This document shows positions 24,994 through 33,775 of a DNA stretch of 64,000 nt, one piece after another (the first letter of the stretch is position 1; each line of letters starts with the position of its first letter). This DNA is from Peptococcaceae bacterium (GTDB lineage Bacteria; Bacillota; Peptococcia; DRI-13; PHAD01), in the NCBI GenBank assembly GCA_024655825.1, contig JANLFJ010000005.1, forward strand, positions 28,541 to 92,540, written 5' to 3'. The notes under the pieces were generated by a model. It was not told where the DNA came from and made no database searches. It worked only from the letters and a program-made list of their open reading frames with translations. The position numbers and the translations under genes were made by a program.

Positions 24994-25686
24994 ATGGAGC
25001 TGATAAAACAGAATTTGCTTGTTTTAAAGGAAGAAATTTATGAAGCCTGCCGCCGCAGCGGGCGCAAGCCTGATGAGGTTGTCCTGGTGGCGGTAAGCAA
25101 ATCGCATCCCGTGGAGACCATCAGGAAGGCCTATGATTTGGGGCAGCGCGTTTTTGGAGAGAATCGCGTCCAGGAACTGCTGAAAAAGCAGCCGGAATTG
25201 CCGCCTGATATGGAATGGCATTTGGTTGGAACTTTACAGCGCAACAAGGTCAAACAGGTGATAGACAAGGTTTCCTTGATCCATTCCGTTGATTCGCTGC
25301 CCCTGGCGAAAGAAATCAGCAGGCAGGCCGTGTTGAAGGGAAAAACGGCGCATGTGCTTCTCCAGGTGAATATAGCGGAAGAAGCGAGCAAACACGGGTT
25401 TTTGCAAAAAGAATTGGCTGCCGCGGTCAAGGAAATTAATGATCTGCCTGGAATAAAGATTAAAGGGCTGATGACAATTGCGCCTATTACCCGGAACCCC
25501 CAAGAGGTGCGTCCGGTTTTCAGGCGCCTGCGGGAACTGGCCGGTGAAATGAAAGCACTGGGATTGCCGGACCTGGAGATGGACGAACTATCCATGGGCA
25601 TGAGCGATGATTTCCAGGTAGCTGTAGAGGAAGGAGCAACCCTGGTGCGGATAGGCAGTCGTATTTTCGGTCCCCGAGTTTACTAA
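24994..25686 (+). CDS. yggS: PLP homeostasis protein YggS/YlmE
   Basis: LVAVSK, FGENRVQE, WHLVGTLQRNK, GLMTI, LSMGMSDDF, VRIGSRIFG. Confidence 0.97.
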   Translation: MELIKQNLLVLKEEIYEACRRSGRKPDEVVLVAVSKSHPVETIRKAYDLGQRVFGENRVQELLKKQPELPPDMEWHLVGTLQRNKVKQVIDKVSLIHSVDSLPLAKEISRQAVLKGKTAHVLLQVNIAEEASKHGFLQKELAAAVKEINDLPGIKIKGLMTIAPITRNPQEVRPVFRRLRELAGEMKALGLPDLEMDELSMGMSDDFQVAVEEGATLVRIGSRIFGPRVY

Positions 25687-25701
25687 AGGAGGAGGAGGCT
25701 C

Positions 25702-26175
25702 TTGAAAGTCTTTGACAGGTTTTTGGATCTCGTGGGTTTTACTGAGGTCAAAGAGGAGGTTGTAGTGGAGGAAGAGAGTCCTTTGGACGAGGTCCCGGAA
25801 TGGAAGCCGTCACGGAAAACAAGAGGACAGGTTGTTCCCTTAAATACCAGTAAGGAGCAAATAAAGGTGGTTTTAATTGAACCGGCTGCCTTTGACGACT
25901 GCCAGCAAATTGCCGACAGCTTGAAAAACAAGCGCACGGTGATAATCAACCTGGAAAACATCGACCTGGGGCTGGCACGCCGGATCATTGATTTTGTTGG
26001 CGGAACTGCCTACGCGCTTGGCGGGGCCTTGCAGAAAATAGGCTCAGGCATCATCATAGCCGTGCCCAGCAATGTTGATATTTCCGGGGACATTCATTCC
26101 ATGAGCCAGCCCAAAGAGGTCTTTGCCTGGATCAACAAGCTGACGCAGGGGAATGACTTCAACAGGAGGTACTGA
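25702..26175 (+). CDS. sepF: Cell division protein SepF
   Basis: EPAAFDDCQQIAD, VIINLE, RRIIDFVGG, AVPSNV. Confidence 0.95.
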   Translation: MKVFDRFLDLVGFTEVKEEVVVEEESPLDEVPEWKPSRKTRGQVVPLNTSKEQIKVVLIEPAAFDDCQQIADSLKNKRTVIINLENIDLGLARRIIDFVGGTAYALGGALQKIGSGIIIAVPSNVDISGDIHSMSQPKEVFAWINKLTQGNDFNRRY

Positions 26176-26178
26176 GCA

Positions 26179-26973
26179 TTGAAACGCATCGGGTTTATCG
26201 GCGGGGGAGCCATGGGAGAAGCTTTTATCAGGGGGCTTCTGACCAGGGGTAGAGACCCCAACACCATTGCGGTAAGCGAAAAGAACCTTGAACGACTGGA
26301 CCTTTTGAAGAAGAATTATGGGATTGTTTCTTTCCGTGAAAACAGGGAACTGGTGCGCTTCGGCGAGATAATTATTCTTGCCGTCAAACCGCAGAATTTA
26401 TTGGAGGCAGTGGAGAGTTTTTCGTCGTTGATTACAAGTGACAAGCTTCTTGTCTCCATCCTGGCCGGCGTGACCAGGGCAAAGATCGAGTCCTTGCTGC
26501 CGCAGGGGAGCAAGGTGATCAGGGCTATGCCCAATACACCCGCGTTGATCGGCGCAGGCGCTACCGTCCTGGCTGCGGGTCCAGGTGTGGCCCCCGGCGA
26601 ACTTCAGTCGGTTTGTGAAGTTTTTGAAGCTGTGGGAAGTGTCACCGTTTTGCCGGAGGACATGCTCAACGCTGTTACAGGATTAAGCGGCAGCGGTCCG
26701 GCGTTTGCTTATCTTTTTATTGAGGCCTTGGCCGATGGAGGCGTGATGGCGGGGCTTCCCCGGGATACTGCTTATAAGCTGGCAGCCATGACCGTGAAAG
26801 GCGCGGCGATGATGGTTTTAGATTCAAAACTTCATCCGGCACAGTTAAAAGACATGGTGACTTCCCCCGGCGGAACCACCATTTACGGGCTTTTGGAAAT
26901 GGAGAAGGCTGGAGTGAGAGGAGCAGTAATGAAAACAGTTGTGACAGCGGCAAAAAGAGCGGAGGAATTATAG
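26179..26973 (+). CDS. proC: Pyrroline-5-carboxylate reductase
   Basis: GFIGGGAMG, AVKPQ, RAMPNTP, GLSGSGPA, VTSPGGTT. Confidence 0.97.
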   Translation: MKRIGFIGGGAMGEAFIRGLLTRGRDPNTIAVSEKNLERLDLLKKNYGIVSFRENRELVRFGEIIILAVKPQNLLEAVESFSSLITSDKLLVSILAGVTRAKIESLLPQGSKVIRAMPNTPALIGAGATVLAAGPGVAPGELQSVCEVFEAVGSVTVLPEDMLNAVTGLSGSGPAFAYLFIEALADGGVMAGLPRDTAYKLAAMTVKGAAMMVLDSKLHPAQLKDMVTSPGGTTIYGLLEMEKAGVRGAVMKTVVTAAKRAEEL

Positions 26974-27010
26974 CAGTTTATAAAACGAAACAGCAGGGGA
27001 GAGTGGGAAA

Positions 27011-27271
27011 TTGTACCGGCTTATACCTTATGTTCGGGTCGCCTTTGAAGTGTACTACGGGTTGATTATCGTTCGCGTTTTGCTGTCCTGGATACCTCAT
27101 GATCCGTATAAAAGCGTATTTCGGTTTGTTTACGAGGTTACGGAACCGGTTTTGGCTCCGTTTCGCAGGCTGATTGGAGGGCGAATGATGATCGACTTTT
27201 CCCCGATTTTTGCTCTTCTAGCCCTGGAACTGCTGGAAAGGCTGGTAATCAGCATCCTTCGTTACCTGTAA
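27011..27271 (+). CDS. YggT/YlmG family membrane protein
   Basis: IVRVLLSWIP, VTEPVLAPFRR, IDFSPI. Confidence 0.92.
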   Translation: MYRLIPYVRVAFEVYYGLIIVRVLLSWIPHDPYKSVFRFVYEVTEPVLAPFRRLIGGRMMIDFSPIFALLALELLERLVISILRYL

Positions 27272-27310
27272 AGCGTGTAAGAAAAGCTGATAGCCGAGGA
27301 GGGAAATCGC

Positions 27311-27826
27311 TTGTTAACGCCACTTGATATTCACAACAAGGAATTTAAAAGAGGGTTTCGCGGTTATGACATTGATGAAGTGGACGAATTCTTGGACGAG
27401 GTAATCAAGGATTTCGAGTCGCTGTACAAGGAAAACCTGGAACTCAAAGAAGAAATAAGAAAACAAAAAGAGCACCTCAGCCGTTACAAGGAAACGGAGG
27501 ATGCCCTGCAGAATACGATGCTGCTTGCCCAGAAAATGTTGGAAGAGTCCAAGAAAAATGCTGAAAAGGAAGCTGAACTGGTGCTGTGGGAGGCCAGGAA
27601 GAAGGCTGAACAAATTGTGAGCGGCGCCCACGACCAGGTTACGGAGAACATAAGGAAGGTGGAGCAACTAAAAGCATTTGAAAAACAGCTGAAAACAAGG
27701 CTTAAGAGTTTCCTTGCCGCCCAGCTTGAGATGTTGGAGAGCAGCGACTTTGACGAAGAGCCTTGTGCTGGGGCAGAAGGCCGGGAGGAAAACGTTCATG
27801 AGTCCGTGGAAGATAACCGAGACTGA
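27311..27826 (+). CDS. divIVA: DivIVA domain protein
   Basis: [27 protein letters not shown] followed by coiled coil. Confidence 0.95.
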
Positions 27827-28124
27827 AAGCGGGGTCTTGTTCAGCATTAAGGTACAGCCGCGGGCGGCAAGAAATGAAATTGGAGGGCTGCAGGGCCAGG
27901 ACCTTAAAATAAGACTGACTGCCCCACCGACGGAAGGAGAGGCAAACGAGGCCTGCATCAGGTTTATTGCCGAGTGGCTGGATGTGCCCAAAAATGCGGT
28001 AAGAATAATTGCCGGACATACCAGCCGGCACAAGATAATCAAGGCAGCAGGGATAAGCAAGGGAGAACTGATTCGGCGCCTCGAGATGACGCAGGCAAGA
28101 AGCGGCATAAAGTTTGAGCTTTGA
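27798..28124 (+). CDS. DUF167 (YggU) family protein
   Basis: [30 protein letters not shown]; ATG 27798 after GGGAGG (track start 27714). Confidence 0.9.
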
Positions 28125-28139
28125 AGGACGGGGCCGGAT

Positions 28140-28169
28140 TTGACTTTCGCTGCCGCTTTGTTTTATACT
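28140..28169 (+). promoter_or_regulatory. Putative SigA promoter of ileS
   Basis: TTGACT-N18-TATACT. Confidence 0.65.
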
Positions 28170-28191
28170 TTATGGAGCAAGGGCTGTAAGT

Positions 28192-28241
28192 GGGGTGGTA
28201 CCACGGGTAGAACTCGTCCCCTTGGGGGGAGTTTTTGTTTT
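28192..28241 (+). ncRNA. T-box antiterminator/terminator module (Stem I not found)
   Basis: GGGG-TGGTACC-ACGGG-TAGAA-CTCGT-CCCT antiterminator with 7-nt bulge; overlapping terminator AACTCGTCCC/GGGGGGAGTT followed by T-tract. Confidence 0.8.
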
Positions 28242-28259
28242 GTAAGAGGTGAGAAAGGG

Positions 28260-31049
28260 ATGGAAAAGGCTAACAAGTATAATGAAACTCTCAACCTTCC
28301 AAAAACAGAATTCCCGATGCGGGCCAACCTTCCGCAGAGGGAGCCGGAGATTTTGAGAAAATGGGAGGAAATCAAACTTTACGATACTGTCCAGGAGTCC
28401 TGCAAAGGCCGGCCCAAATTTATCCTGCACGATGGACCTCCATACGCCAATGGGGACATTCACCTTGGGCATACTTTGAATAAGGTGCTGAAAGACATAA
28501 TTGTCAAATTCCACAGCCTTAGAGGTTATGACTCACCTTATGTGCCGGGCTGGGATACCCACGGCCTGCCTATAGAACAGCAAGCCATCAAGGCCCTGGG
28601 CTTAAACAGGCACGCTGCCGATCCCCTGGAGTTCAGAAGGCATTGCAGGGAATATGCATTAAAATACGTAGATATCCAGAGAGAGCAGTTTAAACGCCTT
28701 GGAGTAAGAGGGGACTGGGAAAACCCGTACCTCACGCTGAGCCCTGAATTTGAGGCCGTACAAATCGGTGTTTTCGGCGAAATGGCTAAAAAAGGGTATA
28801 TTTACAAAGGGCTGAAGCCGGTCTACTGGTGTCCGAGTTGCGAAACAGCGTTGGCCGAGGCAGAGATCGAATACAACGAAAAAAAGTCGGCTTCAATTTA
28901 TGTCAAGTTTCCTGTAAGCCAAGGGAATAACGTTCTGAGAGAGGACAACACGTATTTTGTAATCTGGACAACCACGCCCTGGACGCTTCCGGCCAACATG
29001 GCCATCTGTCTCCATCCGGAATTGGAATACAATGTACTGGCGGTTGGCGAAGAAAAGTATGTAGTTGCCGGGGAGCTTACGGCGTCTTTTCTCGAAGTGC
29101 TGGGCAACCCGCCGCATTATATCGAAAAAAAATTCCGCGGCGCAAAACTGGAAGGAATTACGTGCCGCCATCCTTTTTATGACCGGAAATCGGTGGTTGT
29201 CCTGGGGGAACACGTCACGACGGAGCAAGGAACCGGCTGCGTCCACACCGCTCCGGGACACGGCGTAGAAGACTTCGAGGTCGGTAAAAAATACGGTCTT
29301 GAAGTTTTGTCGCCGGTTGACGACAGAGGAAGGTTTACCAGGGAAGCCGGCAAGTTTGCAGGAATGTTTATCGAAGACGCCAATAAGGCAATATCCGCCG
29401 AGCTGAAGGAAAGGGGCCTGCTCCTGCACCTGGGATTTATCAGGCACCAGTACCCGCATTGCTGGCGCTGTAAAAAGCCGGTCATGTTCAGGGCGACTGA
29501 GCAGTGGTTTGCTTCAATTGACGGGTTCCGCCAGCAAATACTGCAGGCCATCGAGGAGGTCCGCTGGATCCCTGCCTGGGGAAAGGACAGGATTCACAAC
29601 ATGGTAGCCGAACGGAGCGACTGGTGTATCTCCAGGCAGCGAACCTGGGGAGTGCCTATCCCGATTTTTTACTGCAAAGAATGCGGGAAAGAGATCATTA
29701 ATGATGACACAATCGGCCATTTGCAGAAACTTTTTGCTGAACACGGCTCAGACGTATGGTGGGCCAGGCCGGCAGAAGAACTGATCCCGCCGGGGCTTGC
29801 CTGTCCAGCCTGCGGTAGAAGAGAATTCCGCAAGGAAACCGATATTATGGATGTCTGGTTCGATTCCGGTTCAAGCCACTTTGCCGTTCTGGAAAAACGT
29901 CCTGAACTGAGATGGCCTGCCGATTTGTACTTGGAAGGAAGCGATCAACACAGGGGTTGGTTTAACTCGTCTTTATCGACATCGGTGGCCGTGCGGGGGA
30001 CGGCGCCGTACAGGGCGGTTCTGACTCATGGTTTTTTGGTCGACGAAATGGGAAGAAAAATGTCCAAATCCCTTGGGAACGGGATAGACCCTCTGGAAGT
30101 TATCGAACAGATGGGGGCGGATATACTGAGACTGTGGGTTTCTTCCGCCGATTACCGGACCGATGTGGCCGCCTCGCCCAATATTCTAAAACAGATAACG
30201 GAGGCATACCGGAAAGTTCGCAACACCTGCCGCTACATCCTGGGAAATCTTTACGACTTTAATCCTGAAAAAGACGGGGTATCTTATGAGCAACTAGCCG
30301 AAATCGACAGGTGGGCGCTTCTTAAGCTGCACAAATTGATAAAAAGGGTTACGGACGCCTATGAGAATTATGAATTTCATGTGGTATACCACAGCATCCA
30401 CAATTTCTGTGCCGTGGATATGAGCGCAATATACCTGGACATCATTAAAGACAGGGTCTATACGGCAAAAGCCGGTTCGCTCGAGCGCAGGAGCGCCCAG
30501 CAAACCATGTACGAGATAATCTCAGCGCTGGTCAGAATGCTCACCCCCATCCTGGCTTTTACCACGGAAGAAATCTGGCAGTACTTGCCTTATAACAAAG
30601 GAGCAGCAACGGTACAGGCAGCCGGATGGCCGGAGTACAACGAACGCTGCGTTGATAGTGATCTGGAAAAACGCTGGGAAAAAATACTGGAGATCAGGGA
30701 GTATGCAGCTAAGCCCCTGGAGGAAGCTCGCCAGCAAAAGGTCATCGGGCATTCCCTGGATGCACGCGTTCAGCTGTATGCCGCCGGCGAGTGGTATCAA
30801 TTTTTGAAGGAATTGGAAAGCGAGCTGCCCACTATCCTGATCACCTCGAGCGTGGCCGTTTATCCTAAAGGGGAAGCGCCGGCCGGTGCTTATTCGAGCG
30901 AAGATATTCCGGATGTCGCAGTCCTTGTGCAAAAAGCACCCGGAAAAAAATGCGAACGCTGCTGGATATATTCAGAAACCACGGGATTGGAAGAAGCGCA
31001 TCCCACCCTGTGCCGGCGCTGCGCGCAAGTAATGGCGGGGCAGAATTGA
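28260..31049 (+). CDS. ileS: Isoleucine--tRNA ligase (type 1)
   Basis: HDGPPYANGDIHLGH, GWDTHGLP, WTTTPWT, KMSKSLGN, C-terminal CERCW...CRRC Zn finger; ATG 28260 (track start TTG 28140 coincides with the -35 element). Confidence 0.98.
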   Translation: MEKANKYNETLNLPKTEFPMRANLPQREPEILRKWEEIKLYDTVQESCKGRPKFILHDGPPYANGDIHLGHTLNKVLKDIIVKFHSLRGYDSPYVPGWDTHGLPIEQQAIKALGLNRHAADPLEFRRHCREYALKYVDIQREQFKRLGVRGDWENPYLTLSPEFEAVQIGVFGEMAKKGYIYKGLKPVYWCPSCETALAEAEIEYNEKKSASIYVKFPVSQGNNVLREDNTYFVIWTTTPWTLPANMAICLHPELEYNVLAVGEEKYVVAGELTASFLEVLGNPPHYIEKKFRGAKLEGITCRHPFYDRKSVVVLGEHVTTEQGTGCVHTAPGHGVEDFEVGKKYGLEVLSPVDDRGRFTREAGKFAGMFIEDANKAISAELKERGLLLHLGFIRHQYPHCWRCKKPVMFRATEQWFASIDGFRQQILQAIEEVRWIPAWGKDRIHNMVAERSDWCISRQRTWGVPIPIFYCKECGKEIINDDTIGHLQKLFAEHGSDVWWARPAEELIPPGLACPACGRREFRKETDIMDVWFDSGSSHFAVLEKRPELRWPADLYLEGSDQHRGWFNSSLSTSVAVRGTAPYRAVLTHGFLVDEMGRKMSKSLGNGIDPLEVIEQMGADILRLWVSSADYRTDVAASPNILKQITEAYRKVRNTCRYILGNLYDFNPEKDGVSYEQLAEIDRWALLKLHKLIKRVTDAYENYEFHVVYHSIHNFCAVDMSAIYLDIIKDRVYTAKAGSLERRSAQQTMYEIISALVRMLTPILAFTTEEIWQYLPYNKGAATVQAAGWPEYNERCVDSDLEKRWEKILEIREYAAKPLEEARQQKVIGHSLDARVQLYAAGEWYQFLKELESELPTILITSSVAVYPKGEAPAGAYSSEDIPDVAVLVQKAPGKKCERCWIYSETTGLEEAHPTLCRRCAQVMAGQN

Positions 31050-33530: not shown

Positions 33531-33726
33531 CGGATGAAGCCCGGCGGGAGAGTCTCTTAATGAGCGCCGAAGGAGCAAAACCGGAAAATTACTGGCGCCG
33601 GTTGAATCTCTCAGGCAAACAGCACCGCAGGTGGACGTGTCCCTGGAGAGGTATTTATGCCGGCATAAATACACCAAAGGGGTAAACCGGGATTTACCGG
33701 AGAAACTCTCAGGTAAAAGGACAGGG
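33531..33726 (+). ncRNA. Tandem glycine riboswitch
   Basis: GGATGAAG leader; aptamer 1 GGGAGAG...GCCGAAGGAGCAA...CTCTCAGGC; aptamer 2 CTGGAGAG...ACCAAAGGGGTAA...CTCTCAGGTAAAAGGACAGGG; upstream of gcvT. Confidence 0.93.
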
Positions 33727-33775
33727 AAAACAGTAGGAGAATGTTGCTGCTGTTTTGCTTTGTCCTTTCTTTTTG
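33716..33775 (+). terminator. Riboswitch expression-platform terminator (glycine ON switch)
   Basis: AAAGGACA...AAAACAGTAG/CTGCTGTTTT...TGTCCTTT followed by CTTTTT; competes with the 3' strand of aptamer-2 P1. Confidence 0.7.

Follow-up and report, generated by a model that had tools for sequence, protein, structure and literature searches.

In transcriptional T-boxes, rapid recruitment of the tRNA depends on Stem I: single-molecule work shows that Stem I acts first and that the antiterminator then locks the tRNA (PMC5951919). An antiterminator without Stem III shows no appreciable tRNA binding, and the 5'-RRRxG-Stem III-AA-3' element belongs to the sensing unit (PMC7583486). In this work we analysed an ileS leader, a real T-box riboswitch from which the whole tRNA-decoding half has been deleted. 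This leader is a natural experiment on what becomes of a T-box expression platform after loss of the tRNA-decoding domain; no description of a natural Stem-I-less T-box was found in the literature searched.

The leader lies in the window (the whole 64,000-nt stretch of DNA that was analysed), upstream of the sole isoleucyl-tRNA synthetase gene found in this genome (one match), and its features are collected in Table 1. A first-pass annotation, made from the sequence alone, had described most of these parts, and the promoter with its 18-nt spacer, the position of the antiterminator 67 nt past the DUF167 stop and the overlap that makes the terminator and the antiterminator mutually exclusive in the predicted folds were all recovered. 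In the antiterminator itself GGGG, TGGTACC and ACGGG/CTCGT are as it had them, but the 3' strand of helix A1 reads CCCC and not CCCT. Helix A1 begins 22 nt past the -10 box, that is ~16–17 nt past the predicted start site, and the leader measures 93 nt from the -10 box to the ATG. With a GC-rich hairpin and a U-tract in the 5' UTR, and a competing structure predicted upstream of them, it has the composition of an attenuator based on an intrinsic terminator. The fold of the whole ileS leader shows no excess stability (z = -0.02), which argues against a hidden large structure.

Table 1. Features of the ileS leader and of the flanking genes (positions in the window).
Feature	Position	Strand	Sequence or basis
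DUF167/YggU gene	27798..28124	+	directly 5' of the leader; translation, PF02594, synteny
DUF167 stop codon	28122-28124		TGA
Sigma-70-type promoter	28140..28169	+	TTGACT-N18-TATACT; 10/12 matches
-35 box	28140-28145		TTGACT
-10 box	28164-28169		TATACT; spacer 18
5' leader remnant and deletion junction	28170..28191	+	comparison with relatives
Mini-hairpin	28176-28185		AGC/AAGG/GCT
T-box antiterminator	28192..28221	+	RF00230 match; 34/34 identity to G001
Helix A1	28192-28195, 28218-28221		GGGG pairs with CCCC
Antiterminator bulge	28196-28202		7 nt, TGGTACC (UGGUACC)
Helix A2	28203-28207, 28213-28217		ACGGG pairs with CTCGT (CUCGU); loop UAGAA
Intrinsic terminator, hairpin and U-tract	28211..28241	+	9-bp hairpin, predicted -11.6 kcal/mol; U-tract UUUGUUUU
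Terminator hairpin	28211-28233		AACUC-G-UCCC / GGGG-G-GAGUU, then TTTGTTTT
Ribosome-binding site	28244..28252	+	AAGAGGUGA; 3' of the terminator, unsequestered in the folds
ileS	28260..31049	+	ATG at 28260; Pfam families

At its gathering threshold Rfam finds no T-box in the window, just a tandem glycine riboswitch (33535-33727, two RF00504 aptamers, 59.5 and 45.8 bits). The RF00230 scan that the first-pass annotation had proposed was run permissively over 27300-28400 (E<=10): 28188-28221 aligns to positions 183-216 of the model only, with all pairs standard, at 29.2 bits (E 2e-4), below the gathering threshold of 93 bits. The 12 other T-boxes of this genome align over the full model at 69-120 bits, and the second module of the aroF leader is the only other 3'-only RF00230 match that the genome contains. 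No partial match is present among the best 150 matches listed for a scan of 41 genomes, and a pattern scan of the genome contigs for another promoter-proximal antiterminator copy gave 0 matches. We consider the ileS match to be beyond chance because its 34 nt (AGUGGGGUGGUACCACGGGUAGAACUCGUCCCCU) are identical, 34/34, to the full ileS T-box of a same-family genome (G001), because it occupies the position of the T-box in relatives, and because a second assembly (L140) carries an identical leader (3327/3327 nt). An assembly artefact was considered and is ruled out by the same architecture in two assemblies here and two of the sister lineage. The T-box sequence itself is present as a 7-nt bulge, UGGN-ACC, between A1 and A2, and the pairing of UGGU with A73 of the tRNA, already put forward in the first-pass annotation, is consistent with all the full ileS T-boxes of relatives.

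The decoding half is absent from the sequences covered. The 5' part of RF00230 (positions 1-182) has no match in 27300-28400 at E<=10, and upstream of the antiterminator no Stem I, Stem II or proper Stem III was detected with Rfam or, for Stem I, with an order-specific covariance model built from the aligned Stem I regions of 19 same-order ileS T-boxes. As RNAalifold gave only 6 base pairs this is mostly a sequence model, but controls show that it works, with scores of 24-39 bits on the other T-boxes of this genome and of 30-47 bits on 17 untrained ileS leaders. With filters off, its best score over 25000-28400 was 4.2 bits (E about 0.9), and it found no Ile-type Stem I elsewhere in the genome. 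Among 95 DUF167-linked loci, 18 have an intact downstream T-box motif; in 17 of these a Stem I lies ~200 nt upstream, and the exception is this leader. Of Stem III and its flanking purine string, 5'-RRRxG...AA-3', what is left is GCUGU, a remnant of the 3' strand, with the AA after it; the RRRxG motif and the 5' strand of Stem III are deleted. The locus does not correspond to a class II ileS T-box either, with no specifier hairpin, ~16 nt from the predicted start to A1 and a ribosome-binding site outside the hairpin. Taken with the scores above, these features establish the absence of Stem I.

The leaders of neighbouring genomes indicate how this form arose. Full-length RF00230 is found upstream of ileS in 19/29 of their loci (82-131 bits), its specifier AUC-A is invariant (19 same-order Stem I regions), and the gene order divIVA-DUF167-ileS is conserved here and in the relatives that have a full T-box. 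The promoter is homologous in G001 and L138, both with a full T-box, in G003, with a leaderless ileS, and in this genome, the conserved segments being TTGACTTT...TGTTTTATACT. Just past the -10 box, TTTATGGAGCAAGGG matches the start of the leader of another genome of the same family (G002, TTTAGAAAACAAGGGG), and within 28170..28191 GCTGTAAGT represents what is left of the former Stem III, namely its 3' strand and flank; GCUGUAAGUG matches the same part of Stem III in relatives (ACUGUUAGUG in G001). Because the promoter-proximal bases and the Stem III 3' flank match the ends of the relatives' leaders, the comparison establishes that this leader arose from a canonical transcriptional isoleucine T-box through an internal deletion of ~190 nt. 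The missing segment begins near +12 of the leader and reaches the 3' strand of Stem III. With it went Stem I and its AUC specifier, Stem II, the IIA/B pseudoknot and the greater part of Stem III, and of the ancestral arrangement there remain the promoter, the antiterminator and the terminator that overlaps it. The AGC/AAGG/GCU mini-hairpin, which had been offered as a possible Stem III, is not conserved in the closest relative, L046 (GGG -> ATC), and is a fortuitous product of the deletion junction.

This order has seen at least three independent, complete losses of the ileS T-box. In G003 the promoter, ribosome-binding site and ATG follow each other with nothing between, in a short leader directly after DUF167 (L033). 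In G024 (L036) the leader element is lost while other members of the family keep it, and a short promoter-RBS leader follows DUF167. In family f7 (L037-L044) the ileS T-box is absent in all seven genomes. The leaderless ileS of G003 was considered as a further step from the deletion described here, but G003 groups with the full-T-box genomes, so its loss is independent.

The closest metagenomic relative, represented in two samples (L046 and L139), has an IleRS N-terminus 90% identical and a DUF167 protein 79% identical to those of this genome, and 75 of 170 four-fold sites (44%) differ between this genome and L046. The L046 leader has the same short form and shares the junction; between the -10 box and the U-tract the two sequences align without an indel. 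As the two also form a clade (support 100/99), the comparison establishes a shared ancestry of the deletion, which predates their split. The first-pass annotation had asked whether relatives conserve the short leader, and the answer is divided: L046 and L139 share the deletion, but most neighbours, the 19/29 mentioned above, carry a full T-box. A search for further members of the deletion clade by DUF167 homologues yielded only the 79% (L046/L139) and 66% (L138, full T-box) matches, and by IleRS N-terminal fragments none above 78% identity.

The comparison with L046 separates the terminator from the T-box bulge. Only 1/18 terminator-paired positions has changed, from U-A to U-G, so that the pair is kept (P=4e-4 against the four-fold rate); the strand shared by the two structures (AACTCGTCCCC / AACUCGUCCCC) has 0/11 changes and the U-tract 1/9. 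In the bulge 5/7 positions have changed (UGGUACC -> CGACGUC) and the NCCA pairing is lost, while the bulge length of 7 is kept and the 5' strands of the helices have 2/9 changes, one of them preserving pairing. These substitution patterns establish conservation of the terminator stem, argue that the terminator is under constraint in both deletion-bearing lineages, and argue that the tRNA-binding bulge is not under constraint in L046. In this genome 0/15 outgroup-polarisable bases of the T-box core have changed, which has a probability of about 0.03 under neutrality on its branch in a test that uses the share of the divergence (branch lengths 0.048 against 0.084); the unchanged bulge alone is not significant (P 0.20). 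The intact core is suggestive of constraint on the antiterminator in this genome, short of proof of tRNA binding, and with two deletion-bearing lineages only, the power of the selection tests is low.

On balance we lean towards a reading in which the deletion relic has been kept as a tRNA-independent, leaky transcription attenuator, whose terminator and antiterminator would still be used while tRNA would play no part. The antiterminator helix is transcribed first and is predicted to be ~2-3 kcal/mol weaker than an unusually weak terminator. Competition between the two would let a constant share of transcripts through into the essential ileS, and would also stop transcripts arriving from divIVA-DUF167. 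The predicted energy of the antiterminator is -8.4 to -9.3 kcal/mol. In a set of 20 ileS leaders, the two that are Stem-I-less have the weakest terminators (-11.6 and -9.3, vs -13.3 to -23.6 kcal/mol), and the terminator-minus-antiterminator gap here is the smallest (-2.3 kcal/mol; full T-boxes range from -4 to -15). In these predicted folds, weak terminators and a small gap are consistent with tuning towards constitutive read-through, and an antiterminator that is transcribed first, combined with a small gap, fits a leaky attenuator independent of tRNA. As ileS is the only gene found for this synthetase and its start codon lies only ~20 nt past the terminator, we infer that it is expressed by read-through. 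A decaying relic acting as a fixed attenuator was one of the two possibilities raised in the first-pass annotation, and it agrees with the deletion origin, with the decay of the L046 bulge next to a conserved terminator and with the repeated losses; rapid decay in relatives, which the annotation had named as evidence against its proposal, is what the L046 bulge and the repeated loss of the ileS T-box present. The intact core, together with an intact Stem-I-less antiterminator on leuS in the same genome, is a hint of selection on more than helix stability here. It also counts against an attenuator that its long retention is not obviously required, since a weaker promoter could serve in place of a fixed attenuator.

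The leuS leaders of the same order form a second series. In this genome (C77:4143-4360; L013:1501-1722) TTGACT-N17-TATAAT is fused 7 nt before an intact antiterminator, the terminator is strong (-17.2 kcal/mol), and RF00230 scores 30.5 bits in an end-to-end alignment with Stem I deleted and no canonical Stem I. A small K-turn-like hairpin (AUGA-AGCC...GGCU-CUU-GAGC) and AACCAAAAGC-type repeats lie upstream of the promoter. A metagenomic relative whose LeuRS is 83% identical (L206) has a full leuS T-box behind a homologous promoter. In Thermanaerosceptrum (G004/G012/G016), G007 and G008 the T-box sequence of the leuS remnant has decayed and the terminators are strong; G002 and G003 have no leuS remnant. 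These leaders support a pattern in which remnants would lose the tRNA-binding sequence and keep the hairpin, and we count the parallel remnants that have kept a terminator with a decayed T-box sequence in favour of the attenuator reading. At the Thermanaerosceptrum leuS loci (L177-L179) an extended -10-like TGATATAAT is found ~60-75 nt past the remnant terminator, which suggests a new promoter that would bypass the relic.

The leader of the aroF operon (DAHP synthase / prephenate dehydratase; C22:149633-150060, L011:1501-1930) is of another kind. A full Phe T-box (UUC) with its own terminator is followed ~25 nt later by a second module, in which a purine string and Stem III precede an intact antiterminator and another terminator, with no room for a second Stem I. 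The combination of one Stem I with two discriminators is also present in G001, G010 and G016 (three families), where the terminator stems covary; no description of this two-discriminator architecture was found in the literature searched. Downstream of the aroF operon, on C22, lies a NiCo riboswitch match (RF02683, L146:3299-3384) that scores 41.1 bits, above the gathering score.

Several other explanations of the ileS leader have to be weighed. The remnant could be a pure relic, an antiterminator and a terminator that have no selected role and are simply undecayed so far, ileS being expressed despite them. Losses of the ileS T-box are recurrent and evidently tolerated (G003, G024 and family f7 live without the leader element), the L046 bulge decays and so do leuS remnants in several genera, but the single change with preserved pairing among 18 terminator-paired positions, set against 44% of four-fold sites, the retention of the U-tract and the persistence of terminators in all leuS remnants make this explanation unlikely in our view. 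The first-pass annotation had raised as its second possibility an anticodon-independent sensor or a sensor of a trans-acting RNA. The UGGU bulge would pair with the A73-CCA of uncharged tRNAs and raise read-through into ileS and leuS in general amino-acid starvation. The Phe, Leu, Tyr, Glu, Pro, Lys, Val, Met and Ala tRNAs and 2/5 Arg tRNAs have A73, about half of the tRNA species found in the genome, so residual sensing would be non-specific for one amino acid; tRNA-Ile(GAU) is not in the assembly, probably since the rRNA operons are missing. Such a sensor would account for a T-box core that is intact in 15 bases although the deletion is older than the L046 split, for the second intact Stem-I-less antiterminator, on leuS, and for the discriminator-only module of aroF, conserved across three families; the aroF module, however, has a Stem I in cis on the same transcript and is no true parallel. 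Against it, tRNA binding needs the purine string of Stem III (PMC7583486), which this leader lacks, recruitment within the time window of transcription needs Stem I (PMC5951919), the conservation of the bulge by itself is not significant, the sister lineage kept the terminator and lost the bulge, and most leuS remnants have lost the T-box sequence. The proposal received no positive support, and we regard it as improbable.

A different ligand (a protein, a small RNA or a metabolite) might stabilize or block the antiterminator, whose helices are largely kept in L046, with 2/9 changes and a bulge still 7 nt long, next to a conserved terminator. Against this, the two lineages have entirely different bulge sequences, the fold of the leader as a whole shows no excess stability, the analysis turned up no candidate partner and the genome has no Ile-type Stem I elsewhere; this makes such a ligand quite improbable. 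As to a Stem I that was missed, it could be of an ultrashort form, such as exists in T-boxes of Actinobacteria (PMC7583486), or lie inside the DUF167 coding region, where the first-pass annotation had said that its discovery would overturn the proposal; transcripts that read through from DUF167 are likely, as there is no terminator between that gene and the leader. Rfam (over 27300-28400) and the order-specific model (over 25000-28400) both find no such stem, there is no ATC triplet in 28100-28190, and the nearest AUC-A (AUAAUCAAGG, about 28044-28053) sits in the HKIIK codons of DUF167 and is GUC in L046. The homologous promoter, moreover, marks the start of the ancestral leader, and we hold the chance of a missed Stem I to be very slight.

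The attenuator reading therefore remains the one that we favour, and the ileS and leuS leaders of this order can be set in a series: full T-boxes, Stem-I-less leaders that are intact, leaders with a decayed bulge and a conserved terminator, and leaders with no element. This series shows how riboswitches are lost, and it points to a possible survival of the terminator half as a simple attenuator. It is also a warning for annotators, as a perfect T-box motif need not mean tRNA sensing. If the intact remnants of this genome did respond to tRNA, this would overturn the view of Stem I as indispensable for transcriptional T-boxes, and anticodon-independent sensing of general amino-acid starvation would be a T-box mode so far undescribed.

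Among known systems, the canonical class I T-boxes (RF00230; G001, L138 and Thermanaerosceptrum G012 in the same order, tyrS and glyQS in B. subtilis) are homologous to this leader by descent. It has the same T-box sequence, antiterminator, overlapping terminator, promoter and gene (34/34 with G001), but has neither Stem I (with its K-turn, AUC specifier loop and distal platform) nor Stem II, and also lacks the IIA/B pseudoknot and a genuine Stem III with the purine string. It measures 93 nt, whereas in G001 and G002, of the same family, the complete intergenic region between DUF167 and ileS has ~290-410 nt. The Actinobacterial class II ileS T-boxes (Sherwood et al. 2015, as cited in PMC7583486) resemble it in their gene and in a reduced decoding arm. 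In the account given in PMC7583486 they keep a specifier-presenting Stem I, Stem II and a pseudoknot and control the Shine-Dalgarno sequence, whereas here there is no specifier, the platform is a terminator with a U-tract and the ribosome-binding site is free. The leader can be seen as a natural counterpart of the isolated antiterminator model RNAs (Gerdeman/Hines; Li et al. 2019, both as cited in PMC7583486), although a functional discriminator in vitro, as described in that source, needs Stem III and RRRxG...AA, and only the 3' AA and a 3-bp junction hairpin are present here. With simple constitutive 5'-UTR attenuators it shares a promoter-proximal hairpin, a U-tract and a competing upstream helix, and it differs from them in that its origin from a riboswitch platform can still be traced and its tRNA-binding bulge is intact.
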